Positions 10,048 to 56,871 of a stretch of DNA of 64,000 nt are shown here, piece after piece; position 1 is the first letter of the stretch, and the number at the start of each line of letters is the position of its first letter. The notes beneath the pieces are model-generated. The model was not told where the DNA came from. It searched no databases and worked only from the letters and a program-made list of their open reading frames with translations. The stretch comes from Phycisphaerales bacterium. GTDB lineage: Bacteria; Planctomycetota; Phycisphaerae; Phycisphaerales; UBA1924. The position numbers were made by a program, and so were the translations under genes. The DNA lies in NCBI GenBank assembly GCA_022843545.1, contig JALHNL010000002.1, positions 47,992 to 111,991 on the forward strand, written 5' to 3'.

Positions 10048-11052
10048 TCACTTCGCCGCCGCCGCGCTCTTGGGCGATTCGCCCTCGACCGGGGGCGAAA
10101 AGCGGACCCGCACCCGCACGCCCGCGGGCCACTCGCGCGGGTTGGGAGCCTCCACACGCACGCGCCGGCTGCCGCTGGTGTCCACCACGCGCGACACGTC
10201 CAGCACCTTCCCCTTCACCACCGCGTCGCTCTCGGGCGCGCCCGGCGCGTCGAACAGCACCCATGCCGAGTCGCCCGCCTTCAGCCCGCGGATCAGCGTC
10301 TCGTCCGTCGGCGTCGGCACGTCGATCCACACCGGATCGATGCTCACCACGCGCACCACCGGGCCCGCCTGCTCAAAGGCCTGCCCCACTTCGCACGCCA
10401 CCGCCTCCACCACGCCGTCAAACGGCGCTTCCAGCCGGTAGCGCTCCAGTTGCTTCTCGAGCTGAACCAGCCGCGCGGCCTCTTCCTTCATGTCGGACTT
10501 GGCGTTCGCCACCGCGGCCTCGGAGCTCTTCACCTGCGCCACGCGCTCGTCGATCTCCGACTGGTTCAGCGCGTCCTTCGCGAACGCCTCCTGCCCCGTG
10601 CGCAGCCGGATCCTCGCCAGTTCCAGCGACGCCTCCGCGTTCTTCACCGGCGCATCGTTCACCGAGCGAACACGCTGAACCTCGATGCTCGCCACCACCT
10701 CCGCGTCGCGACCGCGGATGAGCAGCTCGCCGCGCTTCACCCGCTGCCCCCCCACCACGCGCACCTCCTGGACCTCCATCGGGATGGTGAAGCCCATGAT
10801 GGCGTCTCGGCTCGGACGCGACACCCACTCAAAGCCCCCGAACGCACGCGCCTTGGACTCCCAGTCCTTGCTCGGCGGGATCGGAACAATCTGCGGGCTC
10901 AGAGCGGGGGCCGCGCCGGCGTAGCCGGGGGCCGACTCGCTCGACGCCGCCGGGCCGGGCTGCGCGATCGCCATCGCCCCCAGCGCCAGCCACGAACACA
11001 CGATGATCCACCCCGCTCGGGGTCCAGGCATTCGTCCGGTCATAGTCCGCAT
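10048..11052 (-). CDS. HlyD/RND-type periplasmic adaptor (membrane fusion protein)
   Basis: The ORF runs to 11235, but the plausible start is ATG 11052 (MRTMTGRMPGPRAGWIIVCSWLALGAMAIAQ signal-anchor). Has a lipoyl-like motif (VKRGELLIRGRDAEV), a coiled coil and a beta-barrel C-terminus. Confidence 0.7.
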   Translation of the reverse strand: MRTMTGRMPGPRAGWIIVCSWLALGAMAIAQPGPAASSESAPGYAGAAPALSPQIVPIPPSKDWESKARAFGGFEWVSRPSRDAIMGFTIPMEVQEVRVVGGQRVKRGELLIRGRDAEVVASIEVQRVRSVNDAPVKNAEASLELARIRLRTGQEAFAKDALNQSEIDERVAQVKSSEAAVANAKSDMKEEAARLVQLEKQLERYRLEAPFDGVVEAVACEVGQAFEQAGPVVRVVSIDPVWIDVPTPTDETLIRGLKAGDSAWVLFDAPGAPESDAVVKGKVLDVSRVVDTSGSRRVRVEAPNPREWPAGVRVRVRFSPPVEGESPKSAAAAK

Positions 11053-12560: not shown

Positions 12561-12600
12561 CTCCGTCGCTCCACACTTCGTCACTTCGTCACTTCTCCCC
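12561..12600 (-). repeat. Octamer array (sense strand GAAGTGAC GAAGTGAC ...) just 3' of the MFS gene stop
   Basis: Plus strand reads ctccgtcgctccacacttcgtcacttcgtcacttctcccc with 8-nt period. On the minus strand it reads AGAAGTGACGAAGTGACGAAGTGTGG, directly downstream of the stop at 12608-12610. Confidence 0.8.
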
Positions 12601-12607: not shown

Positions 12608-14158
12608 TCACTTCCCCGGCCAATGCTCCTTGGCCAGGATCGCGTCCACCAGCCCCGTGCGTGCGGCGGGCCGGCGCGGCATCCCGTCCACCTCCGGCGT
12701 GCGCTTGATGAGCATGAACACGCCGGCGACCATGAGCGGCACCGAAAGCACCAGCACCGCCGCCTGAGCGCCGTACCACGCCGCGTCGGCCTTGCCCAGG
12801 TCACTGACCAGCCGGGCCAGGACGATCTCGCCCACGAACCCGCCCAGCAGCACGCCCAGTGCGGTCGCCCCGAATGACGCGGTGTTGGCGATCGCCATCA
12901 CGCGCCCGCGCATCGCGTCGGGCACCAGGTTCTGCATCGCCGCCCACGTCTGGTTGAACGACCAGATCCAGAACACGCCCACCACGAACATGATCGGCCA
13001 GCCCAGCCAGAGCAGCGGGTTGAGCGCAAACGCGGTGATCGCCACGCCCAGACCCGAGAGCGCCATCGGGATGAAGTGGTGCTTGGGGTACCACGCGGGC
13101 AGCCAGCGCAGCGCGATCCCGCCGGTCACCGCGCCCACGCCCTGCACCGCCAGCAGCCACCCCACGATCGATTCGACTGAGGCCTTGCTCGCCCCGAAGG
13201 CGTCGAGTGTGAACTGCGAGAGCAGTCGCACCAGCGGCGCGGCGAACATGCTCGCCACCACCATCGCCAGAAACACCGCCAGCGGGCCGCGGTTGCGCGT
13301 CACAAACTGCCACGCCGACCACAACTGCGCCCGCGCCTTGCGACCATCTTGCGGGGGCGGGGGCGCCGCGGGCGTGCGCGACACCGCCAGCACCACGCCC
13401 AGAAATGTCAGCGTGTTGATCGCGAACAGGGGCGTGGGGCCCGCGGCGTGCATGAGCACCCCGCCCAGGGCCGGGCCCACCACCCGCGCCAGGTTGAACT
13501 GGATGCCGTTGAGCGTGATCGCCTTGGTGAGTTCTTCCCGCGGCACCAGCCGCGGCGTCAGCACCTGCCACGCCGGCATGTTGAACGACATGATCACCGC
13601 GTTGATCGCGCCCAGCCCGATGAGCACCCAGGGCAGCGTCCGCCCCTCGTGAGGCAACAGCGCGCTAGCCAGCGCCACGCACGCCGCCACGCCCATCAGC
13701 ATCACCTGCGTTACGATCAGCAGTTTGCGCCGGTCAACCCGGTCGGCGACCAGCCCGCCGAAGAGCCCCATGAGCAGGATGGGCAGCATCTGGGCCGCGC
13801 CCAGGTACGCCGCCATCTTCAGTTCGCCGGTGATCTTGGCCATCAGCAACTGGACGCCGACCAGTTCCATCCAGCTGCCCACGTTGCTCACAAACGCGGC
13901 GATCCACACGTTGCGGAAGTGCCCGTGCCGCAGAACGCTGCGCTGATACTCCGCCTTCACCGCGCCGACGATCTCGGAATAGCGCCCGCCCGCCGCGCCC
14001 CGCGCCCGCGGCATCGCCGACTGCGCGTCCGCCTCAAACGACGACGCCGCGCCCGTCGCGCTCAGCGAAGCGCGATCACCGTCCGCCTGCGCGTCGGCTT
14101 TGGGAGAGGTTGGCTGTTCAGAGGACACGATCCGGGCTCCGTCCCGCCTTCGTTCCAA
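12608..14158 (-). CDS. MFS transporter (EntS/MFS_3-like)
   Basis: 516-aa ORF with about 12 hydrophobic helices and an MFS motif-A-like GGLVADRVDRRKLL. The N-terminal 60-70 aa are low complexity, so the true start may be internal. Confidence 0.75.
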   Translation of the reverse strand: MERRRDGARIVSSEQPTSPKADAQADGDRASLSATGAASSFEADAQSAMPRARGAAGGRYSEIVGAVKAEYQRSVLRHGHFRNVWIAAFVSNVGSWMELVGVQLLMAKITGELKMAAYLGAAQMLPILLMGLFGGLVADRVDRRKLLIVTQVMLMGVAACVALASALLPHEGRTLPWVLIGLGAINAVIMSFNMPAWQVLTPRLVPREELTKAITLNGIQFNLARVVGPALGGVLMHAAGPTPLFAINTLTFLGVVLAVSRTPAAPPPPQDGRKARAQLWSAWQFVTRNRGPLAVFLAMVVASMFAAPLVRLLSQFTLDAFGASKASVESIVGWLLAVQGVGAVTGGIALRWLPAWYPKHHFIPMALSGLGVAITAFALNPLLWLGWPIMFVVGVFWIWSFNQTWAAMQNLVPDAMRGRVMAIANTASFGATALGVLLGGFVGEIVLARLVSDLGKADAAWYGAQAAVLVLSVPLMVAGVFMLIKRTPEVDGMPRRPAARTGLVDAILAKEHWPGK

Positions 14159-19944: not shown

Positions 19945-20144
19945 TCGATCTCTTAGCCATTTTCAATCAGTCCAACGTAACTCTGATTGTGGCGAGATCG
20001 GCGTGACTTTTGACGAAGAAGTGCCCTCGCACTGTCCACGACCACCCACTCAGGCGGTCTGAATGGGAACAAGTACTTAGCGCATTGGGCTGGGAAAGCA
20101 CGGCTGCCAGCTTGTCGATGCGGAGCCCGACACCCACTTGGGCG

Positions 20145-20549
20145 TCACAGCTCGCCGAGCACGGTCAGCACATCCCGCAAGACCAGCTCACTCCGCGTCC
20201 GGTCGCCGAAGGGGGTGAGGTGGATCTCGATCAGCGTCCCCCCCGGCTGGGCGGAGGCGGTGATCTGATACTCCTCAACCACTGACCCGCCAGCGAACCG
20301 GGCGCGGATCCGCGAACGCTCTTCGCTGGTGTATCGCCCAACCAAAACCCAACCACGAGACTCTACCACCTGCTCGGCCGCCGCCTGGACGGTGAGCGGA
20401 TCCACATTCGGGACCAGCGTCCGTGTGACCGCCAGGTCGTAGGTGGCGACCAGCCCCGTGTCGGCGATGGGCTGGGGTGAACCACAGCCCCCAAGGAGGG
20501 CCGGGGCGAGCGAGGCGAGAGCGAGCGTGCGGAGGCGGGACATGCTCAA
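20145..20549 (-). CDS. Hypothetical lipoprotein
   Basis: 134 aa with signal plus lipobox MSMSRLRTLALASLAPALLGGC. Confidence 0.55.
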   Translation of the reverse strand: MSMSRLRTLALASLAPALLGGCGSPQPIADTGLVATYDLAVTRTLVPNVDPLTVQAAAEQVVESRGWVLVGRYTSEERSRIRARFAGGSVVEEYQITASAQPGGTLIEIHLTPFGDRTRSELVLRDVLTVLGEL

Positions 20550-20695
20550 GGAATCGGACCGCGGACGGGCGCCCCGTCAATCCTGGGCGGAATACCCCGA
20601 ATTCACTTGACCTGAGCGGGCGGGCGGGCTTCAGTTGGGGCCCTGAAAACCAACCCGTCCAGGCCTGGGCGGGAACTCTGAAAGGTGAGATTCGA

Positions 20696-20986
20696 ATGGC
20701 GATCCGCGTGAAGTCCCGTAGCGGCGAGTCCGCCGAGCAGATGATGCGCCGGTTCAAGAAGCTCTGCGAGAAGGAGGGCTTGAACAAGGACATCAAGCGG
20801 AAGGAATACTACGAGAAGCCCTCGGAGCGCAACCGCCGCGACCAGCGCAAGGCCATCGCGCGGCGCATCCGCGAGCAGATGGAAGCCTCCGGCGAGCGGC
20901 CCATGCGCATGGGCCGCGGCGGCCCGGGCATGAAGGCCGGCGGCGGTCCGGGCGGGCCCGGCGGTCCGCGCGGCGGGTCGCGCTGA
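20696..20986 (+). CDS. rpsU: 30S ribosomal protein S21 with Gly/Pro-rich C-terminal tail
   Basis: MAIRVKSRSGESAEQMMRRFKKLCEKEGLNKDIKRKEYYEKPSERNRR is classic S21. AAAGGTGAG lies upstream of ATG 20696. Confidence 0.9.
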   Translation: MAIRVKSRSGESAEQMMRRFKKLCEKEGLNKDIKRKEYYEKPSERNRRDQRKAIARRIREQMEASGERPMRMGRGGPGMKAGGGPGGPGGPRGGSR

Positions 20987-21005
20987 AATCAGACTGATCC
21001 TGCTC

Positions 21006-21040
21006 AACCGCCCGCGGATGACGCGGGCGGTTGTCTTTTT
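21006..21040 (+). terminator. Rho-independent terminator after rpsU
   Basis: Stem aaccgcccgcg / cgcgggcggtt with loop gatga, followed by gtcttttt. Confidence 0.7.
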
Positions 21041-21256
21041 GGGGGCCCGGCGGCCGGCGGCGGGACCTTGTGGTCACTTGACGGGTGGGCCGCCCCACGG
21101 CAAACTAGGAACCCTTGTCCCCAAGTCCCTTCCTCTTAGGGGTTTGCGGGGCTACTGTCCGCCCTTCTCTTCGGCACGGCGGGGTCGTGCCGATACTGCC
21201 CCGCAGCCCCATCGTTCGCAAATCGTGCGGTTCTTCTTTGCCCGGAGGCAAACATC

Positions 21257-24124
<2,868 letters not shown>

Positions 24125-24127
<3 letters not shown>

Positions 24128-24168
24128 CGAAATGACGAAGTGACGGAGTGACGGAGTGACGAAGTGAA
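24125..24168 (+). repeat. Octamer array TGACGRAG x5-6, starting with the hppA stop codon
   Basis: Reads tgacgaaa tgacgaag tgacggag tgacggag tgacgaag tgaag. TGA recurs every 8 nt and so falls in all three frames. Confidence 0.9.
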
Positions 24169-24176
24169 GATCAAGA

Positions 24177-24205
24177 CCCCGCCCGGGTGACTGGGCGGGG
24201 TTTTT
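24177..24205 (+). terminator. Rho-independent terminator after hppA
   Basis: Stem ccccgccc / gggcgggg followed by ttttt. Confidence 0.7.
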
Positions 24206-24282
24206 CGTTTGTGGAGTGAAGGTGTCGCGAAGCGCTGCGGGGCGGGTGATGGCGTGCTCGTGTTGCTCGCTACTGTTTGCCC

Positions 24283-24749
24283 ATGCGCGTGTGGCGGAAC
24301 ATGAGGTGGCGGACGCGGACGGCTACCGCCCTCGCCGTGTTCGTCTCCATTTCCTATGCCGCGGCGTCTTTAGGCGAAATCGCCTGGAATCGCGCCGACG
24401 ATCGCCTACTTCTGGCGCTCTCTGAGGGTTCCGTCGGAGGCTCCTATATGGACGGGGCACCACGCTGGCCCATCACAGACACGGGCTGGAGTGCGAAGTG
24501 GAGCCGCTTTCCGAATCGATGGTGGTTCTGGTTCGATCGCACGTCATCGTTCCGAGGCGCACCAGTCGTCTACACAGCGTCAATCCCGCTCTGGGTCCCC
24601 AGCGTCATAACCTGGGGCGCCGCGCTCTGGCTGTGGCGGATCGACCGGCGGCGCTGGGCACTTGCCGCGGCTGCGGCTATAGCCTGCGCGGCCTGCGGCT
24701 CGGCGCGGCGTGCCCGGAGTGCGGGCAGATACCCCGGCCCGCTCCATAG
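24283..24749 (+). pseudogene. Zinc-ribbon membrane protein paralog B, apparently frameshifted
   Basis: The frame from ATG 24283 encodes a membrane-like protein (...VVYTASIPLWVPSVITWGAALWLWRIDRRR). The CRGCGYSLRGLRLGAACPECGQIPRPAP* ribbon lies in the adjacent frame (24663-24749). The switch must fall near 24640-24660. There are more A/T-ending codons than in neighbouring genes. Confidence 0.45.
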
Positions 24750-24851
24750 CCGCATTGCGCGTCTGGCAAGTCTGTCGATGATGACGGCTGAGACGAGATC
24801 GAAGAAGGCAGCAAGCCACGCGGCATCGAGGCATCAAGCCCGAACACTCGA

Positions 24852-24899
24852 CCACTCCGCTACTCCGTCACTCCGTCACTCCGTCACTCCGTCACTTCT
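24852..24899 (-). repeat. Octamer array (sense strand AGTGACGG x4-5) immediately 3' of the nuoD stop
   Basis: Plus strand reads ccactccg ctactccg tcactccg tcactccg tcactccg tcacttct. Minus strand reads GAAGTGACGGAGTGACGGAGTGACGGAGTGACGGAGTAGCGG just after the TAG stop (24902-24904). Confidence 0.9.
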
Positions 24900-24901
24900 T
24901 C

Positions 24902-26188
24902 CTACCGGTCCAGTTCCGCCGCCACCACGTTGATCGAGCCGATGATCGCGACCACGTCGCTGACCAGGTGGCCTTCGGTGAGCTTGCTCATCATGCTGTA
25001 GTTGATGAAGCACGGCGGGCGGACCTTGACGCGCCAGGGGCGGGGGCCGCCGTCGGCGACGATGTAGTAGCCCAGTTCGCCGTTGGGGCTCTCGACCGCG
25101 GCGTAGGCCTCGGCGACCGGGGCCTTCCAGCCGCGGTTGCTCATGATGAGCTCGAAGTGCTGGATGAGGCCTTCGATGGAGCCGTAGACGTCCTTCTTGG
25201 GCGGCTTGACGACCTTGCCGTCGGCGAGGGTGTCGACGGGGCCCTTGGGGATGTTGTCGATGAGTTGGCGGACGATGGAGAGCGACTCGCGCATCTCGTG
25301 AGCGCGCACGAGGTAGCGGGCGTAGCAGTCGCCCTCGGTGGCGATGGGGACCTGGAACTTGACGGCGGGCGCGCCCTGGCCGTCCCAGTTGTCGGCGTAG
25401 CAGAGGTACGGGTTGTCCTTGCGCAGGTCGCGGCGCACGCCGCTGGCGCGGGCCATGGGGCCGCTGAGCGACCAGGCGATCGCGTCCTCCTTGGAGATGA
25501 CGCCGATGCCCTGGGTGCGGTCCATGAAGATGCGGTTGCGGAGCAGGAGCCCGTCCATCTCGTCGACGGTCTTGGCGATGTCGTCGACGGCGCGCTTGAC
25601 GAGGCGCTTGAACATCTCCTCGTCGGGCACGTCCTGCATGAGCCCGCCGACGCGGGTCCAGTCGGGGTGGAAGCGCTGGCCGCTGACGTAGTCGCACAGG
25701 TCGTAGATGAGTTCGCGGCTGTTGAAGCCGTAGATGAACGCGGTGAACGCGCCCAGGTCGAGCCCGGCGGCGCCGCAGCAAAGCAGGTGGTTCTGGATGC
25801 GGCCCAGCTCGAACATGATGGTGCGGAGGGCCTTGCAGCGCGGGGTGATGTCGATGTCGAAGAGGTGCTCGACGGCGTGGTGCCAGGCGATGTCGTTGCA
25901 GATGGGCGAGAGGTAGTCCATCCGCGAGACGACGGTGACGTACTGGTTGTAGTCGTGGTGCTCGGCGAGCTTCTCGAAGCCCGAGTGGAGGTAGCCGATG
26001 TGGGGCGTGCAGCGGACGACGCGCTCGCCGTCGAGCTCGAGCACCAGGCGCAGGGTGGTGTGCGTGGCGGGGTGCTGGGGGCCGAAGTTCAGGACCCAGC
26101 GCTCGCCGGTGTCGACGTGCTGCTTGATGTAGTCGATGCGCTCGACGTCAACGTCGAATCCGTCGTGGGGCTTCAGCGTGAAGGCCAT
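24902..26188 (-). CDS. nuoD: NADH-quinone oxidoreductase subunit D
   Basis: Has MAFTLKPHDGFDVDVERIDYIKQHVDTGERWVLNFGPQHPATHTTLRLVLELDGE and ends ...IGSINVVAAELDR. Start ATG 26188 is preceded by GAGGAG. The upstream ORF extension (26189-26368) is repeat-derived. Confidence 0.9.
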   Translation of the reverse strand: MAFTLKPHDGFDVDVERIDYIKQHVDTGERWVLNFGPQHPATHTTLRLVLELDGERVVRCTPHIGYLHSGFEKLAEHHDYNQYVTVVSRMDYLSPICNDIAWHHAVEHLFDIDITPRCKALRTIMFELGRIQNHLLCCGAAGLDLGAFTAFIYGFNSRELIYDLCDYVSGQRFHPDWTRVGGLMQDVPDEEMFKRLVKRAVDDIAKTVDEMDGLLLRNRIFMDRTQGIGVISKEDAIAWSLSGPMARASGVRRDLRKDNPYLCYADNWDGQGAPAVKFQVPIATEGDCYARYLVRAHEMRESLSIVRQLIDNIPKGPVDTLADGKVVKPPKKDVYGSIEGLIQHFELIMSNRGWKAPVAEAYAAVESPNGELGYYIVADGGPRPWRVKVRPPCFINYSMMSKLTEGHLVSDVVAIIGSINVVAAELDR

Positions 26189-28859: not shown

Positions 28860-28884
28860 CTCAGCACTCAGCACTCAGCACTCA
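28860..28884 (-). repeat. Heptamer array (sense strand TGAGTGC x3) starting with the stop codon of 28882..30384
   Basis: Plus strand reads ctcagca ctcagca ctcagca ctca. Sense strand reads TGAGTGCTGAGTGCTGAGTGCTGAG, with TGA every 7 nt, covering all three frames. Confidence 0.9.
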
Positions 28885-30384
28885 CTTCCCCTCGCCCCGC
28901 ACCGCGTGCTGCAGGGCGACAAGGGAGTAGGCGCTGATGAGGATGGGGTTGTTCTCCATCCAGCGGTCGTCGATGGAGCGGAAGGAGCCGTCGGGGTTCT
29001 GCAGGCGGGCGAACTGTTCGATCATGTCGTCGCGCCAGTTGCGGGATTGGGGGACATCGGGGTTGTTGGTCATGGAGGCGATGATGGGCTTGCCCTTGAA
29101 GTCCACGCCGTCGAGGGCCTTGGTCGCCGCCTGGGCCTTGTCTTCAGAGCCGAAGTAGGCGAAGGCGAAGGATCGCGCGGGCTTGATGGGCGGGCCGGGC
29201 CACACGAGGACGGCCTGGGCGTCCTTGAGCGCGTCGAGCGTGCGCAGGTCGGCCTCGCTGGTGCCTTCGGGCATGCCAGCGATCCACACCACGCCGCGGT
29301 ACGGCGCAAAGCGCGTGACCTCGATCGAGTCCAGGCCCGAGGAGTTCAGGGCGCGGGCCATGGCGATCAGGAAGTAGTAGTACCCGTCGGTGCCCATGCC
29401 CGGGTTCTCGGCGAGCGTGTAGTTGCCGCGGATCCAGTCCATCGCGGCGACCACGCGCGGGTCGCTCGGGCTCAGGCCCGCGTAGATGTACGACTTGAAG
29501 CCGATGTAGGTCGTCGAGCCGTACGCGCGGAGCTTGGAGACGTTGCTGCCGTCGTCCATGGACTCCTCGATGGTGCCGGCGAAGGACTGGCCCTTGCCGG
29601 CGGTCTGGTCGTTCTCGCCGGTGGCGTAGATGAAGCCGCCCTGCTTGGAGCCCTTGGCGTAGGGCAGGTCGTTGACGACCGTGCCGTCGGGGGCCTTCTC
29701 CAGCATCTGGCAGCGCTGCAGGAAGACGATGGCGCGCTGGAAGGCGGGGTCGTCGGTGGGCAGGCCCGTGTCGTGCCAGGCCTGGATGGCGAAGGCGAGG
29801 TTGGACAGGTCCGGACGCCCGCGGTTGCCGTAGCCCAGACCGCCGTAGAACGGATGGTCGCGGCTCACGGCGGCGGGGGTTTCGGTGCCGTGCGGGCCCG
29901 CGGCCTTCATGCCCACGGGCGTGGCGGAGCCCCACTGCTGGTTCTTGAGGAAGTCCTGCGCGGGCTTGATCCTGGCCTGCGCCTCGGGCGTGTTCACACG
30001 CGCGAGGGCCGAGAGGGAGATGGCGGTGTTGTACGACGGGAGGGCCGAGTCGTAGATCCCGCCGTCGGGCTGCGCGTGAGAGAGGAGGTAGCGGACGCCC
30101 GCGGCGACGGCGGGGTCCTTCTCATCAACGCCCGGCTGCAAAAGCAGGCCGTTCAGGACCAGGCCGGAGATGGCGGGGTAGTTGGGGATGCCCTTGCCCG
30201 GCGGGGGCACGGCCCAGCCGCCGGAGTCCTTGTCCTGCTGGGCGCGGAGGTAGGCGATGGCCTTGTCGATCATCTCCTCGCCCTGCTTCCGACGCTCGGG
30301 GCTGGGCCCGGCGAACGCGGCCAGCGGGGCGGCGAGGGACAGGACGAAGCAAGCGAGACGGCGGGGGATGGGGAGCATGGGCAA
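28882..30384 (-). CDS. Secreted prenyltransferase/squalene-oxidase-repeat (alpha/alpha toroid-like) protein with inserted RRM-like module
   Basis: 500 aa with a signal peptide MPMLPIPRRLACFVLSLAAPLAAFA. Repeats of the type AIAYLRAQQDKDSGGW, GVRYLLSHAQPDGGI and FARLQNPDGSF. The insert at residues 364-437 has RNP-like VVWIAGMP and RSFAFAYF. Confidence 0.6.
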   Translation of the reverse strand: MPMLPIPRRLACFVLSLAAPLAAFAGPSPERRKQGEEMIDKAIAYLRAQQDKDSGGWAVPPPGKGIPNYPAISGLVLNGLLLQPGVDEKDPAVAAGVRYLLSHAQPDGGIYDSALPSYNTAISLSALARVNTPEAQARIKPAQDFLKNQQWGSATPVGMKAAGPHGTETPAAVSRDHPFYGGLGYGNRGRPDLSNLAFAIQAWHDTGLPTDDPAFQRAIVFLQRCQMLEKAPDGTVVNDLPYAKGSKQGGFIYATGENDQTAGKGQSFAGTIEESMDDGSNVSKLRAYGSTTYIGFKSYIYAGLSPSDPRVVAAMDWIRGNYTLAENPGMGTDGYYYFLIAMARALNSSGLDSIEVTRFAPYRGVVWIAGMPEGTSEADLRTLDALKDAQAVLVWPGPPIKPARSFAFAYFGSEDKAQAATKALDGVDFKGKPIIASMTNNPDVPQSRNWRDDMIEQFARLQNPDGSFRSIDDRWMENNPILISAYSLVALQHAVRGEGK

Positions 30385-34401: not shown

Positions 34402-34550
34402 GGACAGGGGGTCCTACCGCGGGCCGTTCCGGGCGATTCGCGGGGGGAGAGTCTAGGCGAACGGGGATGGGGTGGTAGAAGGTGAAGGATGAAGACGAAG
34501 GCCCGACTCAAGGAGCCGGGGCACCCACACGACCCGGGGAACACCCCGGA

Positions 34551-35227: not shown

Positions 35228-35259
35228 GGTGTCGAGGTGACGGGGTGACGAGGTGTCGA
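35228..35259. repeat. Octamer array GGTGWCGR x4
   Basis: Reads ggtgtcga ggtgacgg ggtgacga ggtgtcga. It is the inverted partner of the array at 35283-35330. Confidence 0.85.
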
Positions 35260-35282
35260 GAACTGGCGATGCTGGAGGCTAC

Positions 35283-35330
35283 TTCGTCACTGCGTCACAT
35301 CGTTACTTGGTGACTGGGTAACTGGGAATC
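35283..35330 (-). repeat. Octamer array (plus strand NNNGTNAC x6; sense strand GTGACGNA-like) just 3' of the rpsE stop
   Basis: Reads ttcgtcac tgcgtcac atcgttac ttggtgac tgggtaac tgggaatc. Confidence 0.85.
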
Positions 35331-35336: not shown

Positions 35337-36041
35337 TCAGGCCTTGGGGGCTTCGCCGGCGGGGGCGTCGCCCGACTGCTGGACAACGACCTGATCGCGG
35401 CGCGGGCCACGACCGGGACCGCCGCGACCGCCGCGGCCGCCCTTGCCGCCGCGCTCGTTGCCGACGGTGTTGACGGGGCCCTTGGGCTTGTCGCCCTTCT
35501 TGACGGGGGCGGCGAACTGCTTGCCGCGCTCGATCTTCTGGGCGATTTCGGTCATTTCGAGGGTCTGCGACCGCAGCTCGGCGATGTGCCCGGGGGTGCG
35601 GAGCTTCTCGATGGCGTTGAAGACGGCCTTGAGCACGTTCTGCGGGTTGGTGGACCCGTAGCACTTGGTGAGGCAGTCGGCGATGCCGGCGAGCTCGAGC
35701 ACGGCGCGGACGACGGTGCCCGCGACGACGCCGGTGCCCGGGGAGGCGGGGATCAGCCGCACCTTGGTGGAGGAGAAGCGACCCTCGACCTCGTGGTGGA
35801 TGGTGGTGCCGATGCGGGTGAGCTTGATGATGTTGCGCTGGCCGTCCTTCTGGGACTTCTCGATGGCCTGCGGAACCTCACCGCCCTTGGCGTAGCCAAA
35901 GCCGACCTCGCCGTTGCGATTGCCGACGACGACGAGGGCGCCGAAGCTGAAGCGGCGACCACCCTTCACCGTGGCGGACGTGCGGTACACGCCGATGGTG
36001 GTGGACTCGATACTGGAACGTTCGTCAAGCAACTCGGGCAT
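35337..36041 (-). CDS. rpsE: 30S ribosomal protein S5 with Gly/Arg/Lys-rich C-terminal extension
   Basis: Has RTSATVKGGRRFSFGALVVVGNRNGEVGFGYAKG. The tail reads ...KKGDKPKGPVNTVGNERGGKGGRGGRGGPGRGPRRDQ... Confidence 0.95.
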   Translation of the reverse strand: MPELLDERSSIESTTIGVYRTSATVKGGRRFSFGALVVVGNRNGEVGFGYAKGGEVPQAIEKSQKDGQRNIIKLTRIGTTIHHEVEGRFSSTKVRLIPASPGTGVVAGTVVRAVLELAGIADCLTKCYGSTNPQNVLKAVFNAIEKLRTPGHIAELRSQTLEMTEIAQKIERGKQFAAPVKKGDKPKGPVNTVGNERGGKGGRGGRGGPGRGPRRDQVVVQQSGDAPAGEAPKA

Positions 36042-36142
36042 GGGAGGGTCTCGGATGGCGGTCGAGGCGGGTGACGTGATCTAGAGGCGTGAGGCGTTGG
36101 CGGCGGGAACCGGCTTATTCAGCCGGGATACCCACGGCCCGG

Positions 36143-36505
36143 TCAGAACTTGAGGCCGGCCTTGCGGGCGGCGTCGGCGAGGGCCTTGACGCGGCCGTGG
36201 TACTTGAACCCGGCGCGGTCGAAGGCGACGGCGGAGACGCCCTTGGCGATGGCGCGCTTGGCGAGCAGCTCGCCGACGGCGGCGGCGGCCTGAGCGTTGC
36301 CGGTCTTGGGCAGCTTCAGGTCCTTGTCCATCGTGGAGGCCTGGGCGATGGTGCCGCCCTTGAGGTCGTCGATGACCTGGGCGTACATGTGGGCCAGGCT
36401 CTTGTACACGCACAGACGCGGGCGAGAGCCGGTGCCCTCGACCTTCTTGCGGATGCCGATGTGCCGGCGGGCGCGGCGGACTTGCTTGTGCTTGGCGGTG
36501 TCCAT
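36143..36505 (-). CDS. rplR: 50S ribosomal protein L18
   Basis: Reads [20 protein letters not shown]...[26 protein letters not shown]. Confidence 0.95.
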
Positions 36506-36514
36506 GGTTGTCTC

Positions 36515-36549
36515 GGGAGTCTTGAGTCGCGAATCGCGAATCGTGTCTG
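36515..36549. repeat. Heptamer array (NNGARTC x4-5; core GCGAATC x2) in the rplF-rplR spacer
   Basis: Reads gggagtc ttgagtc gcgaatc gcgaatc gtgtctg. Confidence 0.8.
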
Positions 36550-36591
36550 CGGGTGGAAAGTCCTGAGCCGGATGCTCGGCCCGGGGGTGTC

Positions 36592-37149
36592 TCAGGCGGT
36601 GCCGAAGGCCTTGCCGCTCTTGCGCTTGATGACCTCGCCGAAGTACTTGACACCCTTGCCGTTGTAGGGCTCGGGCTTGCGCTTGGAGCGCATGTCGGAG
36701 GCGAACTGCCCGACCATGCGCTTGTCCGGGCCCTGGATCTTGACGAGCTGCTTGTCGACGGTGACCTTCAGCGAGTCGGGGATGGGCATGGAGATCTTGT
36801 TGGCGAAGCCCAGGACCATCTCGAGGGACTTGCCCTTGATGGCGGCCGTCCAGCCGACGCCGACGACTTCCATCTGCTTCTCGAAGCCCTTGGTGACGCC
36901 CTCGATGCTGGTCTGGATGAGAGCGCGGGTGGTGCCCCAGAGCGCGCGGACGGCGCGGTTCTCGCCGAACTTGCTCTCGTCGATGGCGACGTGCACTTCC
37001 TTCTTGGCCTGGTCCACGTTCACCTGGACCTCGGGCTTGAAGGGGGTCTTGAGCTCGCCCAGGGGGCCCTTGACGGTGACGACATGATTCGCCACCGAAA
37101 CGGTGACCTTGTCGGGGACGGCGATGGGTTTGCGGCCGATACGGGACAT
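36592..37149 (-). CDS. rplF: 50S ribosomal protein L6
   Basis: Reads [19 protein letters not shown]...[10 protein letters not shown]. Confidence 0.95.
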
Positions 37150-37191
37150 GTTCGAATCCTCAGGGGTGAGGTGGAATCTCGGGAAGCCGAA

Positions 37192-37590
37192 TCACTCGAC
37201 GATGCAGAGCAGCTCGCCGCCGACCTTCTGGGTGCGGCACTTGCGGTCGCTGAGCACGCCCTTGCTGGTGCTGACGACGGCGATGCCCAGGCCCTGCACG
37301 GGGCGGGGCAGTTCGCCGACCTTCTTGTACACGCGGCGTCCGGGCTTGGACGAGCGGGTGACGTTGGTGATGACCTGCTCGCCGCGCGGGCCGTACTTGA
37401 GGGCGACGCGGAGCTTGCCGCCGCGGCCGTCGTCGACGACGGAGTAGCTCTCGATGTAGCCCTCGTCGCGGAGGACGTCGGCGATGCCGCGGCACACGCG
37501 GGAGTTGATGCAATCCACCGACTTGGCCTTGTTGGCCAGGGCGTTGCGGAGCCTGGTGACCATGTCGCTGATGGGGTCGTTGACTGCCAT
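37192..37590 (-). CDS. rpsH: 30S ribosomal protein S8
   Basis: Reads DPISDMVTRLRNALANKAKSVD...VLRDEGYI...GIAVVSTSKGVLSD. Confidence 0.95.
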   Translation of the reverse strand: MAVNDPISDMVTRLRNALANKAKSVDCINSRVCRGIADVLRDEGYIESYSVVDDGRGGKLRVALKYGPRGEQVITNVTRSSKPGRRVYKKVGELPRPVQGLGIAVVSTSKGVLSDRKCRTQKVGGELLCIVE

Positions 37591-37696
37591 GGGTCGTCTT
37601 CTCGTGAGAGGGAACTCTGTCGGTCTTCGGTCGTCGATGGTCGGTGTTGATCCCGGTCAACGCGGGCGGGTGGCCCGCGGCGCCGGGGCACGTGGG

Positions 37697-37882
37697 TTAC
37701 CAGGAGGCCTTGCGCATGCCGGGGATCTTGCCCTCAAGCGCGAGCTTGCGGAGCATGATGCGGCTGATGCGGAACTTGCGGTACACGCCGTGGGCGCGGC
37801 CGGTGAGTTCGCAGCGGCGGACGGTGCGCGTCGAGAACTTGGGGGTGCGCTTGGAGCGGGCGGTCTGGGCTTTGGTGGCCAT
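37697..37882 (-). CDS. rpsN: 30S ribosomal protein S14, short (61 aa) form lacking three of four zinc-ligand cysteines
   Basis: Reads [61 protein letters not shown], versus the CxxC...CxxC pattern of type-Z S14. Confidence 0.9.
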
Positions 37883-37903
37883 AAGAGTCTCGTGTGTGCG
37901 TGG

Positions 37904-37931
37904 TGCCTGTTCTTCGAATGCCTGATGCCTC
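37904..37931. repeat. Heptamer array (ATGCCTG ATGCCTC; TGCC family) abutting the rplE stop
   Basis: Reads tgcctgt tcttcga atgcctg atgcctc, followed by tta (the rplE stop on the minus strand). Confidence 0.7.
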
Positions 37932-38669
37932 TTACTTCTTCCCGCCCTTGGTCTCTTCGGGCTTGCGGAACGGGAACCCCAGTTCGGACAGGATGAAGCG
38001 GCTGAGCTTGGGGCTGCTCTTCTTGAAGCCGATGGAGATGTTCATGCCGTGGGTGAAGGTGGCCTCGGCCATGTTGATCTCGGGGAACACGCCCTGCTCG
38101 GTGAGGCCGCAGCCGTAGTTGCCCTGCTTGTCGAAGGCCTCGTCGTTCAGACCGCGGAAGTCCTTGATACGCGGGCAGGCGAGGTTGATGAAGCGGTCGA
38201 GGAAGTGCCACATGCGGTCGCGGCGGAGGGTGACCATGGCGGCGGTCTCGACGCCCTCGCGGACCTTGAAGTTCGACACGCTCTTCTTGGCCTTGAGGAC
38301 GACGGGCTTCTGACCGGTGACCTTGACGATCGTGTCAAGCACGGTCTGCTTCACGTTCGCGGGGATCTTGGTCCCCTCGAGGTGGCGGCCCATGTTGATG
38401 TTCACGATGATCTTCTCGAGGCGGGGCTGCTGCATGGGGTTGCGCAGGCCAAGCTCGTCGGCCAGCTTCTGGCGGACGTGGGTCTTGAACCGCGTCTGGA
38501 GGCGCGGCTCAACCCGCGGCTCGGTGGACGCGTCGGGGGCGTCGGCGTGCTTGGGCTTGCCGGAGCCGCCCTTGGGCTTGCCGCCGCCGGCGCCTTCGGG
38601 GCGGCCGCCCTTCTGGGGGCCGTCCTTCTTGGGCTGCTGGTCGGGCTTGTTCTTCTTGTCGTCGGCCAT
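37932..38669 (-). CDS. rplE: 50S ribosomal protein L5 with approx 55-aa Lys/Gly/Pro-rich N-terminal extension
   Basis: The L5 core begins [39 protein letters not shown]. The leader reads [41 protein letters not shown]... Confidence 0.95.
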
Positions 38670-38723
38670 GGCTGAGTCTCGTGGTCTGGGCGTCGCGCGG
38701 GTGCGGACGCGGATGGGCGGTCT

Positions 38724-39071
38724 TTAGCGGGCGCCGCTGACGGCGCCGAGTTCCTTGAGTTCCTTCTTCCCGCGGGTGGCGACGCGGACCTTGCTCCCGT
38801 CGCTGTTGATCTTGAACCGCACGCGGCAGGGCTTGCCGTCGACGACGGGCGAAACCTTGGACATGTGCAGCGGGGCCTCGCGGGTGACGACGGCGCCCTG
38901 GGGGTTCACGCGGGTGGGCCGCATGTGCTTGGTCACCAGGTTCACGCCCTTGATGAACACGCGGCTGTTCTTGGTGTCCACGCGCATGATCACGCCGGTC
39001 TGACCCTTGAGGTCGCCCGAGCGGATGATCACGGTGTCACCTTTGCGGATGTGACGAGCCATATCAGACAA
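38724..39071 (-). CDS. rplX: 50S ribosomal protein L24
   Basis: Reads [25 protein letters not shown]. The alternative start at 39062 (MARHI) would remove the 8-nt overlap with rplN. Confidence 0.95.
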
Positions 39072-39450
39072 CCTCCGGAGCGAGGGAAACGATCTTCATG
39101 TAGTTCTTGTCACGCAGCTCGCGCGCCACCGGCCCGAAGATGCGGGTGCCCTTGGGGTTCCCGTCGTCCTGGATCAGGACCACGGCGTTGGCGTCGAACT
39201 TCACGTACGAGCCGTCGGCGCGGCGGGTGGCCTTGGTGGTGCGCACGACCACGGCCTTGCTCATGTCGCCGGCCTTCACGTCGGCGCCGGGAAGAGCCTT
39301 CTTCACCGAGACGAACACCCGGTCGCCGATGTTGGCGATGCGGCGGGTGAACTTGCCGGTGGCGGTGGACCCGCCGTACACGCGGATGACGTAGGCGATC
39401 TTCGCCCCGCTGTTGTCCGCGACTTCGCACCTGGTTTCTTGTTGCAGCAT
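39064..39450 (-). CDS. rplN: 50S ribosomal protein L14
   Basis: Reads [17 protein letters not shown]...[11 protein letters not shown]. Confidence 0.95.
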
Positions 39451-39497
39451 GGTCTACCTCGTATCGGGCGCGGGCCCGGGGAAGCGAGCGGAACGAA

Positions 39498-39824
39498 TCA
39501 GGCCTTGGCCTCGTCCTTGCCGGGGGCCTCGATGCCTTCGAACTTCATGGACGCGCCCTTGCGCACCACGCGGACCAGAGCCCAGCTCTTGGTCTTGCTC
39601 ACGGGGTTGCACGGGGCGATCTCCACCAGGTCGCCGGTGCGCGACACGTTCTTCTCGTCGTGAACGTTCAGCACCGTCTTGCGGCGGATGATCTTGCCGT
39701 ACTTGGGGTGGATCTGCTCGTTGGGCAGCACCACCTTGCGGGTCTTGGAGCGCTTGTCCCCGTCGACGAGCCCGATGCGGGTCGCCTGGGTCTTCTTCGC
39801 CTTGTCCTTGGTCGTCGTGGCCAT
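39498..39824 (-). CDS. rpsQ: 30S ribosomal protein S17
   Basis: Reads KIIRRKTVLNVHDEKNVSRTGDLVEIAPCNPVSKTKSWALVRVV. Confidence 0.95.
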   Translation of the reverse strand: MATTTKDKAKKTQATRIGLVDGDKRSKTRKVVLPNEQIHPKYGKIIRRKTVLNVHDEKNVSRTGDLVEIAPCNPVSKTKSWALVRVVRKGASMKFEGIEAPGKDEAKA

Positions 39825-39876
39825 GGGTGTCTCGGGGGAGTTCTTGAGTCAGGGTTCGTCGGTCGTCGCGGGGCGA

Positions 39877-40200
39877 TCAGGCCTTCTTGGCGGCCTTGGC
39901 GGGCTTGGAGGTCTTGGCGGGCTTGGCCGTCTTGGCGGCGGCGGGCTTGGAGGCCTTGGCCTTGGCGGCGGGCGCCGTCTTGGGGGCCGAGGTCTGGACG
40001 ACCTTCTGCCCGGAGATGCGCCGCGCGCTGGCCTCGGTGTTCAGGCGGGCGATGTCCTTGCGGATCTTCGCGATCGCCGACGTGTCCTCCACCTTCTCGG
40101 TGGTCTTCTGGATCCGCAGTTCAAAGAGCTTCTCGCGGAGCTTCTTGGTCTCCGCGGTGATCTCTTCGCTGGTCATCTTCTTGACTTCTTCACCGGTCAT
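39877..40200 (-). CDS. rpmC: 50S ribosomal protein L29 with Ala/Lys/Pro-rich C-terminal tail
   Basis: Reads MTGEEVKKMTSEEITAETKKLREKLFELRIQK... with tail APKTAPAAKAKASKPAAAKTAKPAKTSKPAKAAKKA. The track ORF extends to a GTG at 40248 that lies inside the repeat array, so ATG 40200 is preferred. Confidence 0.9.
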   Translation of the reverse strand: MTGEEVKKMTSEEITAETKKLREKLFELRIQKTTEKVEDTSAIAKIRKDIARLNTEASARRISGQKVVQTSAPKTAPAAKAKASKPAAAKTAKPAKTSKPAKAAKKA

Positions 40201-40242
40201 GTCTGACTCCGATTGCTCGCTGCTCTGGCCTTCATCATCCTG

Positions 40243-40281
40243 GATCACTGATCACCGATCATTGATCACGTCTTGGATCAC
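40243..40281 (-). repeat. Heptamer array (sense strand GTGATCN x4-5) starting at the rplP stop codon
   Basis: Plus strand reads gatcact gatcacc gatcatt gatcacg tcttg gatcac. Sense strand reads TGATCCAAGACGTGATCAATGATCGGTGATCAGTGATCC, with TGA every 7 nt. Confidence 0.9.
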
Positions 40282-40697
40282 ACCACCACGCGCCGGCCGA
40301 CCATGCGGGTCTGGCAGGGCATCTTGTTCGCCACGCGGGCGAAGACCTGCTTCGCGACCGCCTCGCTCACGCCGGCGATCTCGAAGAGCATGGTGCCGGG
40401 CTTCACGCGGGCCGCCCAGTATTCCACTTCGGCCTTGCCGGTACCCATTCGGGTTTCCAGGGGCTTCTTGGAGATGGGCTTGTCCGGGAAGACGCGGATG
40501 AAGAGCTTGCCCTCGCGCTTCATGAAGTGCTGAGCGGCGATACGCCCGGCCTCGATCACGCGGCCCGGGAGCCACACCGACTCCAGCGACTGCAGGCCGA
40601 AGTCGCCGAACGCGACGTAGTTGCCCTTCGTCGCCTTGCGCGGGCGGACGCGCCGCATCTCCTTGCGGAACTTGACTCGTTTGGGCATCAGCGCCAT
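40278..40697 (-). CDS. rplP: 50S ribosomal protein L16
   Basis: Reads MALMPKRVKFRKEMRRV...GNYVAFGDFGLQ. Confidence 0.95.
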   Translation of the reverse strand: MALMPKRVKFRKEMRRVRPRKATKGNYVAFGDFGLQSLESVWLPGRVIEAGRIAAQHFMKREGKLFIRVFPDKPISKKPLETRMGTGKAEVEYWAARVKPGTMLFEIAGVSEAVAKQVFARVANKMPCQTRMVGRRVVV

Positions 40698-40774
40698 GGC
40701 TTGCTCCGTCGATCTTCGTCAGGCGGCCCAGGCCGCCAAGGGTGCAGGGAAAGGGAACGCGGGAACAGGTCTGA

Positions 40775-41485: not shown

Positions 41486-41543
41486 GGCGTTCTCGTGGTG
41501 GTGGTCGCTGCGGTGCAGTCTGGTCGGGGGCGGGGGGTCGGGG

Positions 41544-42089: not shown

Positions 42090-42151
42090 GGCGAGGTCCT
42101 CTGCTGGGGCCGACCGCGGATGGGTCGGCCGATGGAGTCGTGCGGAAGGGG

Positions 42152-42469
42152 TTACTTCTTGGGGGCCGGGGCGGGAGCGGCGCCCTTGGCGCCGTCGGCG
42201 ATGCCTTCCTTCTTGTTCGTGTGCCCCTTGAACGTGCGGGTCGGCGAGAACTCGCCGAGCTTGTGCCCGACCATGTCCTCGGTCACGAACACGTCGATGA
42301 AGGCGCGACCGTTGTGCACCTTGAAGCTGTGACCCACGAACTCGGGCACGATCGTGCAGGCCCGACGCCAGGTCTTCATCGCTTCCTTCTTGCCCATCTG
42401 GTTCAGACGCTCCACCCGGCGGTAGAGACGCTCGTCGACAAACGGGCCTTTCTTGCTGCTGCGGCTCAT
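42152..42469 (-). CDS. rpsS: 30S ribosomal protein S19
   Basis: Reads [15 protein letters not shown]...[38 protein letters not shown]. Confidence 0.95.
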
Positions 42470-42550
42470 GCGTTGGTTCTCGTGGGTTCTCGTGCCTGCT
42501 GGGCGACTTCTCTGCTCTGGCCTGGTGCCGGTTGACGGCTGCCTTGGGGA

Positions 42551-43411: not shown

Positions 43412-43437
43412 GGTGTGCTCTCTTTACGGTCTTCCGG

Positions 43438-44448: not shown

Positions 44449-44783
44449 CAGTCTGCTCTCGTCTGGACGCCTCGTGATCGCCCCTCGTGTTCCCCAGGCC
44501 CATGTGCCGGGGGGTGAGGGGCGCCCTCGCCTATCCGCTCGCTCGTTTCGCCCGGGCTTTCGCTTGGGGCCGCCCGGACCATCCGGACGCGAGACGAGTC
44601 GGAATCGACTCGGCTGTCTCGCGGCGGGGGTCGGAGTTCAGCCCTTGCCCGCCGCGCTTTCGCCTTGTTCTCGCCCGGTGGTTGTCTTTCGACCCTTCCG
44701 AGCGGCCGGGGTGATCCGCGGACCACCCAAGCTTCTGACCATCACTCGTTCACTTCCTCAATCCGTCAGTCTGTCAAAGTCTC
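44449..44783 (-). other. 335-nt non-coding spacer inside the S10 operon; candidate structured RNA element
   Basis: rplC and rplD are normally adjacent. The sense strand has four CGAAAG/CGAAAC GNRA-type loop motifs and a strong hairpin at 44588-44623 (cgcgagacgagtcg gaat cgactcggctgtctcgcg). The only ORF here has poor codon bias. Confidence 0.4.
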
Positions 44784-55800: not shown

Positions 55801-55815
55801 CGCCTCACCACTCGC

Positions 55816-56871
55816 TCACTCGCTCTTGGTTCCTCTTCCCACGCCCAGCACCCGGCCCAGCCCAGGCGCGGGGGCCATGACGGCGCGGGCGATACGGGCG
55901 GCGTCAACCGCCGAGCCGATCAGCCCGATGAGCAGGAGGATCGCCCCGATGATCATGAGGCCCATGCCGAAGATGAAGCAGAACTCAGCGAGCAGCCCCC
56001 CCACGAAGAGCGTGAGCAGGGTGATGAGGTCGCCCAGAATGAGCAGGGCCACCGCGGCGCACATCGCGAGCATGGTCTGCCGATCCACCCGTCCGGTGCG
56101 GAGGGCCAGCGACCGCGCGACGAGCAGGCGGGCGTTGGGGCGCAGCCCGATCAGAATCCCCAGCACCAGCCCGAAGGCGGTGAGCCGCCAGATCGTGTGC
56201 TCGACGATCGGGGCCACGCCCACCACCGCGCCGGCGCGGGCGGACTCCGCCGCCAGGTCGCCCAGGTGCAGCACGACGAGCCCGAGCGGGACATAGAGCA
56301 CGACCGCGGCGGCCGCCATCAGGCGATGCCGCAGCGAGATGCCTTCGTGAGGCCGCACGAGCATGACCGCGCCCAGGCCTGAGAGCCAGACGCACGCCGC
56401 CACCGCGCGGGACGAGAGCAGCCACTCGGCGGGCACCAGCCCCAGCGTGCCCGCGCCGGCCCAGTCGCGGGCGACCGACGCGCACACGATGGTCATCGCG
56501 AACAGCGCCCCCACCACCCAGACGATGAGCCCCAGCGCCACGCCCCAGCGTGATCGGATGGGCTGCAGTTCCGCCGCGTGCGGGTCCACCACCGCCAGGA
56601 TCGTCGCCCGCACCGCGGTCCCGCACTCCGGGCACACGCCCAGGATCGACAGGCCCTTGAGGTCATAGCGGCAACTGACGCAGGGCAGAGGGCCGGCCAG
56701 CGACCGCTCGATCAGAGCGGCCATCTTCATGGCCTCAGATGCATCGACCGGGCTGTGGTCATCCCCGACCGGGCCCGGCCCCACGGCGTCCGTCATGCCA
56801 TGACGATATCCGAAGCGGAGCGCCGGCGCACGCCGTAGGGCGGTTGCCCAGGTTCCCACGACCTGGCCCAC
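55816..56871 (-). CDS. Zinc-ribbon membrane protein (paralog family D)
   Basis: Has CVSCRYDLKGLSILGVCPECGT followed by at least 7 hydrophobic helices. The true start is probably internal (M26 or M49/M51). Confidence 0.6.
   Translation of the reverse strand: MGQVVGTWATALRRAPALRFGYRHGMTDAVGPGPVGDDHSPVDASEAMKMAALIERSLAGPLPCVSCRYDLKGLSILGVCPECGTAVRATILAVVDPHAAELQPIRSRWGVALGLIVWVVGALFAMTIVCASVARDWAGAGTLGLVPAEWLLSSRAVAACVWLSGLGAVMLVRPHEGISLRHRLMAAAAVVLYVPLGLVVLHLGDLAAESARAGAVVGVAPIVEHTIWRLTAFGLVLGILIGLRPNARLLVARSLALRTGRVDRQTMLAMCAAVALLILGDLITLLTLFVGGLLAEFCFIFGMGLMIIGAILLLIGLIGSAVDAARIARAVMAPAPGLGRVLGVGRGTKSE

Follow-up and report, generated by a model that had tools for sequence, protein, structure and literature searches.

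Why should four unrelated genes in one stretch of bacterial DNA end in the same tandem octamer, read each time in the direction of the gene that it follows? This question is raised by 64,000 nucleotides (nt) of a Phycisphaerales bacterium (GenBank assembly GCA_022843545.1, contig JALHNL010000002.1, positions 47,992–111,991 of the forward strand), the whole of which is called the window below. In the window, arrays of the octamer GTGACGRR are found in sense at, or just past, the stop codons of hppA, nuoD, a gene for a major facilitator superfamily (MFS) transporter and rpsE. An initial annotation of this DNA described the arrays as giving TGA in all three reading frames and proposed, among other roles, a fail-safe against read-through or frameshifted ribosomes; it knew of no earlier description of the pattern. 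The analyses presented here lead to a plainer answer, which we hold at a probability of about 0.6: the arrays probably make up a family of dispersed simple-sequence repeats, lineage-specific and hypervariable, whose G-rich unit is 8 bp long (GAAGTGAC or GGAGTGAC) and which is tolerated in the stretch that separates stop codon and terminator. In Phycisphaerales, this family is the equivalent of the intergenic repeats of 6–9 bp known from cyanobacteria, Xanthomonas, Beggiatoaceae and Burkholderia, a kind of repeat that has already been published. Since the unit contains TGA and eight is not a multiple of three, a sense array ends any frame within three units; this three-frame closure is an arithmetic by-product that accounts for where the arrays are tolerated, and not an evolved fail-safe.

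Octamer Arrays at Gene Ends in the Window

All four arrays were recovered where the initial annotation had placed them, with the same period and sense orientation, and its gene names hold: hppA encodes an H+-PPase (PF03030), nuoD and rpsE (S5) match PF00346 and PF00333, respectively, and the fourth product is an MFS transporter. Where close homologues of HppA carry the name of a source, it is Phycisphaerales, Phycisphaeraceae or Planctomycetota. The pattern GTGACGRAGTGACGR, with at most one mismatch, matches 11 times in the window against 0.02 matches expected, so that chance is excluded for the octamer motif. The motif stands at five to six sites in the 64 kb, beside unrelated genes and with dissimilar flanks, and Tandem Repeats Finder (TRF) gives a period of 8 with 2.8–5.9 copies per array. 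All of the tight arrays in the window are non-coding, and four of the five non-coding arrays lie no more than 45 nt past a sense stop (P ~5e-4 under random placement and orientation).

At hppA, the 3′ end reads ...GGGGGGAAG TGA CGAAATGACGAAGTGACGGAGTGACGGAGTGACGAAGTGAAG, and the last Lys codon and the stop TGA (24125–24127) are inside unit 1 of the array, as had been annotated. The tails of HppA homologues beyond YGMxI are variable, 2–20 residues long, and the protein of the window stops after GGK in unit 1, which fits a scenario in which the array may have overwritten a dispensable tail. As the intrinsic terminator of hppA (24173–24204; see also Table 1) lies downstream of the array, the array is transcribed as part of the 3′ untranslated region. 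In the case of nuoD, the C-terminus is typical of the family, ...ELDR before TAG, and the array follows this stop. The rpsE array is degenerate; its run reads AGTTACCC AGTCACCA AGTAACGA TGTGACGC AGTGACGA AGTAGCC.

The extent of frame closure differs from gene to gene. TGAs recurring every 8 nt in the hppA array shut the three frames within 21 nt, and here the annotated claim of a TGA in every frame stands. It does not stand for the MFS gene, whose array holds just two TGA units and shuts two frames only, the third being shut 164 nt downstream, and at rpsE the three frames are shut within 47 nt by a mixture of TAA, TGA, TGA, and TAG. Among the 57 genes called in the window, six have all frames closed within 50 nt past the stop, each via arrays; for most genes, more than 400 nt are passed before all three frames are shut.

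Turnover of the Arrays at Orthologous Gene Ends

Conservation among orthologues is the decisive test of gene-level function, and the arrays fail it. Comparison of orthologous 3′ ends in related genomes, which the initial annotation had suggested as a check, finds the arrays absent at hppA, nuoD, and the rpsE-rplO spacer. Four hppA loci with three orthologous proteins (82% identity) contain no array and no GTGAC repeats in ~22 kb each, and at these loci the gene end consists of the stop, ~45 nt and the terminator. For nuoD, the array is found in none of 80 orthologues from related Phycisphaerae (71–81% identity), and about 10 of the 80 carry unrelated tandem repeats of 7–12 nt directly past the stop (TTGGCCA, CACAGAGG, GGCACNAA, and others), mostly without stop triplets. 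Relatives, among them five strains belonging to one species, have no such arrays between rpsE and rplO.

Replacement is also seen at much shorter distance. In one contig (L206), S5 is identical and the flanks are 99.5% and 98.4% identical to those of the window, and two neighbouring spacers are aligned gap-free, while the rpsE-rplO spacer is an unrelated sequence of 53 nt against 129 nt in the window. Another (L125) shares 95% identity with the window across hppA, which there has TAG as its stop and then GAAGTGACGGAGTGACG. These comparisons show the arrays to be lineage-specific and hypervariable. A contig that matches at rplP is 100% identical to the window and thus uninformative on variation.

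Two further cases were noticed among the relatives. Immediately past the nuoD stop, the near-identical contigs L134 and L135 contain different numbers of copies of a G-rich 12-mer. Furthermore, in a relative (L208, 1100–1160), a TGA-bearing heptamer array, (CTGACGC)n, stands in the L18-S5 spacer, which is not the spacer that carries the array in the window.

Distribution of the Arrays Among Bacteria

One genome per species was scanned for (GTGACGNN)x2GTGACG, which gave at least 120 loci (L001–L120). In loci of at least 58% GC, genes were called by the GC content of third codon positions (GC3), and 97 arrays were classified among the matches listed. The octamer loci come from many phyla, with Phycisphaerae, other Planctomycetota, Streptomyces, Burkholderia, Sorangium, Steroidobacter, Longimicrobium, Anaerolineae, and cyanobacteria represented. 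Several genomes have three to five array loci each, and in genomes with several arrays the flanks are unrelated between arrays. The arrays are 5–14 units long, reaching 14 copies in other genomes than that of the window.

Near gene 3′ ends, 39 arrays are in sense and 6 in antisense, and in 38 sense cases the stop codon of the gene is usually a TGA of the array. In well-defined short spacers, the stop codon is inside the array in 18 of 35 cases, compared with 5 of 29 for single GTGACG motifs. The arrays inside open reading frames (ORFs) are all antisense (9/9), i.e., the stop-bearing strand is excluded from ORFs, and 43 of the 97 arrays are intergenic and away from any 3′ end. The bias in position and orientation relative to stop codons, on which the initial annotation had built, is therefore real and general beyond the window, and the lack of such a bias, which that annotation had named as a refutation of its view, is not seen. 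Simple neutral seeding at stops does not explain the enrichment, as a rough estimate of chance overlap is ~28% of TGA-bearing arrays and the single-motif control reaches only 4–17%. Stops supplied by an array fall in its first or second strict unit (~11 and 12 cases) and in no case in the third, whereas ORFs that just ran into arrays should give equal thirds.

Strand Polarity and the Role of TGA

If TGA set the orientation of the arrays, those that lack it should be placed differently. In co-directional spacers, arrays without the GTGAC core that are G-rich in sense are nearer the stop in 14 cases and nearer the start in 1, and those that are C-rich in sense are nearer the stop in 5 and nearer the start in 13 (Fisher p=0.00025). 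The GTGAC arrays behave in the same way, with 14 nearer the stop and 3 nearer the start when G-rich in sense vs. 1 and 4 when C-rich (p=0.021). The same polarity in arrays without the GTGAC core means that TGA does not set the orientation, and, the octamer being G-rich, the general rule alone predicts sense arrays past stops and antisense arrays before starts. Indeed, the rpsE-rplO spacer of the window has both, a sense array past the stop and an antisense one before the start. By the median, arrays are 14 nt away from the ORF on the 5′ side and 83.5 nt away from that on the 3′ side. That arrays merely mirror the composition of their spacers was rejected, since in spacers without arrays the polarity of the skew is weak and not significant. 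A rule that post-stop arrays carry stops was rejected too: 21 of 30 non-GTGAC arrays near 3′ ends are without a stop triplet.

In operon spacers, the two orientations are often combined. In this layout, of which (CACAGAGG)n ... (CTCTGTG)n is one example, a G-rich array past the stop is followed by its reverse complement before the next start, and cases are found in L195 (4308–4490), L201 (5145–5211), L095 (1648–1755), L021 (7240–7367), and L131 (2693–2821). Such paired spacer arrays, seen in relatives and in other phyla, are long stems made of tandem units.

Comparison with Known Repeat Families

Every defining trait of dispersed intergenic short-unit repeats that was tested is present in the octamer arrays: a unit of 6–9 bp repeated head-to-tail, one motif at several loci without flank similarity, a non-coding location, rapid turnover, and a G-rich/C-rich polarity. 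The short tandemly repeated repetitive (STRR) heptamers of cyanobacteria are of this kind, one motif being found at many intergenic loci without common flanks. Repetitive extragenic palindromic (REP) sequences, bacterial interspersed mosaic elements (BIMEs), and mycobacterial interspersed repetitive units (MIRUs) are also intergenic, often 3′ of genes or between the genes of an operon, and transcribed, MIRUs being oriented with translation. REP units are imperfect palindromes of 20–40 nt mobilised by REP-associated tyrosine transposases (RAYTs), and MIRUs are units of 40–100 bp with small ORFs. The octamer is neither a REP nor a MIRU; its unit of 8 nt is not self-complementary, and the RNA of the array is unstructured.

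The heptamers GGGAATC of Xanthomonas and GGGGAYT of Nostoc are dispersed, mostly intergenic arrays of 2–26 tandem copies. They are located on the coding strand no more than 50 bp away from the stop, cases of overlap with the stop included, and on the non-coding strand upstream of ORFs; they also form convergent inverted pairs and are transcribed, and their function is not known (Rehm et al., 2015; PMC4692102). The octamers resemble them in being short G-rich tandem units, and the polarity described above reproduces their strand rule. They differ in that the unit is of 8 nt, has a TGA and resides in a Phycisphaerales bacterium, and in that the GAAG and GGAG variants of the window cannot form G-quadruplexes: the units GAAGTGAC and GGAGTGAC are without GGG, although the GTGACGGG variants of other genomes would qualify for the at least four runs of at least three G. 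Likewise, an array is not an intrinsic terminator, as it has no hairpin of its own and the hppA terminator is separate, nor a clustered regularly interspaced short palindromic repeats (CRISPR) locus, the 8-nt units being contiguous without spacers.

Another relevant case is the heptamer TAACTGA, whose direct repeats occur in Beggiatoaceae, cyanobacteria, and Bacteroidetes. Its forward repeats give stops in three frames and hence are confined to ORF ends; 13 sets overlap the stop of the upstream gene, reverse copies are found within ORFs, and the repeats are absent in close relatives. They are AT-rich, mostly located just upstream of start codons, and interpreted as post-transcriptional regulatory sites (MacGregor, 2015; PMC4679880). 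The octamer is likewise a stop-bearing tandem short unit with a period that is not a multiple of three, but its arrays follow stops, ends of convergent genes with terminators included. In Burkholderia, intergenic variable-number tandem repeats (VNTRs) of 6–9 bp are duplicated elsewhere as the motif only, without shared flanks, and their copy number changes at a high rate (U'Ren et al., 2007; PMC1853098). Unlike the octamer arrays, neither these VNTRs nor the STRR sequences have been reported to be associated with stop codons or to have strand polarity, and the motifs differ. The novelty claimed in the initial annotation thus does not survive: three-frame closure is in print for TAACTGA, and post-stop placement for GGGAATC and GGGGAYT (PMC4679880; PMC4692102). 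In the literature on the motif itself and on octamer repeats of Planctomycetes, no description of the octamer family was found.

Origin and Maintenance of the Arrays

How would such arrays come to lie where they do? Slipped-strand or short-duplication events would make, expand, shrink, and replace them, a turnover that may far outpace point substitution. Arrays would then survive where an out-of-frame 8-bp repeat is harmless, chiefly in the untranslated stretch that runs from the stop to the terminator or to the following gene, and the positions observed bear this out in part. Two causes may determine the orientation. One is the general polarity seen in the survey, with the G-rich strand on the coding strand by stops and the C-rich strand by starts. 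The other would be a filter of tolerance: a sense array may run into, or replace, the final codons of a gene together with its stop without harm, and an antisense array, having no stops, would extend the protein. Neither of the causes needs a translational function.

Several observations weigh against this neutral account. The roughly threefold difference in stop inclusion between arrays and single GTGACG motifs (18/35 vs. 5/29) is left unaccounted for, and so is the absence of unit 3 from the array-supplied stops (~11:12:0 among the matches listed). A convergent inverted partner is found no more than 300 nt away for 20 of 129 arrays and a divergent one for 1, ~3.6 being expected, an excess of 20:1. 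In the degenerate array after rplC (L3 by Pfam), five TGAs are exactly 8 nt apart (44744–44776, minus strand) and all 10 mismatches are outside TGA, so that TGA is kept in 5 of 5 units while other positions drift; locally, this array alone hints that the stop triplet as such may be under selection. The arrays also alter what a frameshifted ribosome would meet, in the six of 57 genes closed within 50 nt. Furthermore, a neutral account leaves it unexplained that one motif recurs five to six times in the 64 kb with no flanks in common, and variability at the strain level comes from two short contigs only (L206 and L125).

Alternative Explanations

The arrays may instead be a functional nucleic-acid element, either a putative multivalent site for an RNA- or DNA-binding protein or the G-rich arm of a stem whose other arm is a downstream C-rich inverted array, acting in 3′-end protection, termination or translational coupling. 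We regard this as unlikely, although it would give a meaning to the excess of convergent partners and to the rpsE-rplO spacer, which holds both arms: the antisense copy GGTGACGGGGTGACGAGG at 35237–35251 lies in the same spacer as the rpsE array, and the arms can pair in a hairpin of -30.7 kcal/mol. The G-rich-then-C-rich layout recurs with unrelated motifs (L195, L201, L095, and L021), the hppA array is within the transcript and 5′ of the terminator, and the palindromic GTNAC core is retained in the degenerate rpsE units. The hairpin is, however, marginal (z -1.9), and no partner lies near the hppA array or the nuoD array, the RNA of the former being predicted to be unstructured and single-stranded and the fold of the latter no different from shuffles. 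The element is not conserved across relatives, no match to Rfam 15 at gathering score is found anywhere in the window, and the need for a hairpin alone does not dictate the order of the arms.

The role proposed in the initial annotation is a selected translational fail-safe: off-frame stops are scarce at 68% GC, and the arrays would be kept to halt read-through or frameshifted ribosomes in every frame. In the related ambush hypothesis, extra or out-of-frame stops limit the cost of read-through or frameshifting (PMC5909447), but there single stop triplets within or after the coding sequence are concerned, here tandem arrays, with no conservation that supports selection. Most genes of the window are without all-frame closure in 400 nt and the six that close within 50 nt do so by arrays, arrays are enriched exactly at stop codons, and the rplC array keeps all of its TGAs. 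Such arrays are nonetheless present at only ~6 of 57 genes, they are absent in every orthologue examined and replaced between closely related contigs, the MFS array leaves one frame open, and 5–14 units are far above the three needed. Post-stop arrays of relatives are mostly without stop triplets, and stop-free arrays obey the same polarity and share the same position; 43 of 97 arrays are away from 3′ ends altogether, and 9 are antisense in ORFs.

The pattern of decay bears on the same question. TGA is kept in 121 of 203 degenerate units, more than the ~40% of a rough estimate that spreads mismatches evenly over the six unit positions, which speaks for a fail-safe. The mismatches cluster at CpG (GTGATG 30, GTGACA 27), and the excess retention of TGA is due to CpG decay at positions 5–6; T2 and A4 are as variable as G1, which means no stop-specific conservation. 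Neither conservation at orthologous ends nor best-kept stop triplets, as a fail-safe signal would have, are seen, with the rplC array as a single exception, and a fail-safe role is considered improbable.

A wider version of this idea is that GTGACG-type arrays in GC-rich bacteria of several phyla are active elements, made at TGA stops or selectively kept on them, through a motif-directed process or through selection for rapid all-frame closure in sequence whose next off-frame stops are hundreds of bases off. Generation at, or retention on, TGA stops would explain the stop enrichment, the skew to units 1 and 2, the 20:1 excess of convergent partners and the TGAs after rplC. We think it doubtful in much the same degree as the fail-safe.

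More improbable still is a cassette origin, in which the arrays would be the termini of a small element, mobile or foldback-like, or what is left of it; such a cassette would insert at the 3′ ends of genes and supply a stop of its own. Three unrelated genes end in the exact 10-mer GGGGAAGTGA, TAG GAAG..TGACGGAGTGACG is common to nuoD of the window and hppA of L125, the hppA and nuoD arrays are mutually inverted and bound a 680-bp segment with a frameshifted small ORF, convergent pairs are in strong excess, and an entire spacer is replaced in L206. Beyond the motif, however, flanks are not shared, in the window or in multi-array genomes, and neither target-site duplications nor a neighbouring transposase are present; the terminator that stands between both arrays is hppA's own, as in orthologues, and the array borders are fuzzy and degenerate, as slippage predicts. 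A Shine-Dalgarno-like or mini-ORF reading (GGAG ... GTG ACG GAG TGA) was given up, as leaders of the window are without GGAGG and Shine-Dalgarno initiation looks unimportant. Conservation lends no support to Rho utilization (rut) sites on the antisense strand, which is C-rich, to GGA arrays of the CsrA type, or to DNA sites like those of CRP or sigma factors.

Other Repeats and Features of the Window

Positions of the arrays, and of the hppA terminator, are collected in Table 1. The antisense arm of the rpsE-rplO spacer, the array after rplC and the TGA-bearing arrays in the last three rows of the table had been overlooked in the initial annotation.

Table 1. Short-unit arrays of the window and the terminator of hppA
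Feature	Position	Strand	Description
hppA array	24121..24168	+	Six units GAAGTGAC/GAAATGAC/GGAGTGAC; TRF period 8, 5.9 copies
hppA intrinsic terminator	24173..24212	+	14-bp GC-rich stem and T run; starts 5 nt 3′ of the array
nuoD array	24850..24901	-	Stop TAG 24902–24904, then GAAGAA, (GTGACGGA)x4, GTAGCGGA, GTGG; period 8, 5.5 copies
MFS-gene array	12574..12600	-	AGAAGTGACGAAGTGACGAAGTG; first array TGA 16 nt past the stop 12608–12610
rpsE degenerate post-stop array	35283..35330	-	Stop 35337–35339; GTNAC core every 8 nt; ends GTGACGCA GTGACGAA GTAG
Antisense arm, rpsE-rplO spacer	35228..35260	+	GGTGTCGAGGTGACGGGGTGACGAGGTGTCGAG; C-rich in operon sense; ~40–70 nt upstream of the rplO start
Degenerate octamer array after rplC	44741..44778	-	Stop TAA 44784–44786
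Heptamer array (GTGCTGA)x3.6	28860..28884	-	Overlaps the stop of gene 28882..30384
Heptamer array (GTGATCA)n	40243..40277	-	Directly past the rplP (L16) stop 40278–40280
(GAGCGAGT)x2	55809..55825	-	Overlaps the stop of gene 55816..56871; TGA-bearing

The 10-mer GGGGAAGTGA occurs exactly three times in the window, at 12608–12617 (minus strand), 24118–24127 (plus), and 28882–28891 (minus), and the TGA of each copy is the stop of an unrelated gene, namely, the MFS gene, hppA and gene 28882..30384. Copies with one mismatch at 3761–3770 and 10048–10057 (both minus) end genes as well. This recurrence suggests either that sequence derived from repeats has supplied gene termini or that an ending in Gly-Lys-stop is strongly preferred. 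Other short-unit families are found at two unrelated intergenic sites each: (ATGCCYG)n at 43430–43469 and 55748–55798, and (GAAGGAT)n at 34480–34500 and 55707–55722.

Between the arrays of hppA and nuoD lies a small ORF (24277–24933, plus strand) that is apparently frameshifted and has no Pfam match; a C-terminal CxxCGYSLRGL...CPECG motif, zinc-ribbon-like, is in another frame (24498–24749) than the N-terminal part. In the ribosomal protein operon (36042–44448, minus strand), the leaders before starts are C-rich and without GGAGG, and a CGAGAC(A/C)CC-like motif recurs directly 5′ of ATG, in relatives too. These leaders suggest that initiation in the operon may be independent of Shine-Dalgarno pairing. 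At ~20000–22000, the GC skew turns from negative to positive, giving a minimum of the cumulative skew; if this were an origin, the ribosomal protein operon, which lies to the right on the minus strand, would be head-on to replication. A region that looks gene-poor, 18.9–20.5 kb, contains a LuxR-type gene. No tRNAs are found in the window.

Significance

The arrays add Phycisphaerales, and an octamer motif, to the bacteria with abundant dispersed intergenic repeats of 6–9 bp, and they reproduce independently, in a phylogenetically broad sample, the placement of the G-rich strand on the coding strand beside stops. As the motif carries a stop, it is a convenient handle on such families, its effects of orientation and frame being readable straight from the sequence. 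In practice, the arrays break short-read assemblies and, by setting gene ends, affect the annotation of C-termini, and they would make good strain-typing markers. Should the arrays after all be selected for closing three frames, or arise through a process directed to stops, they would represent a new form of translational error control in GC-rich genomes.

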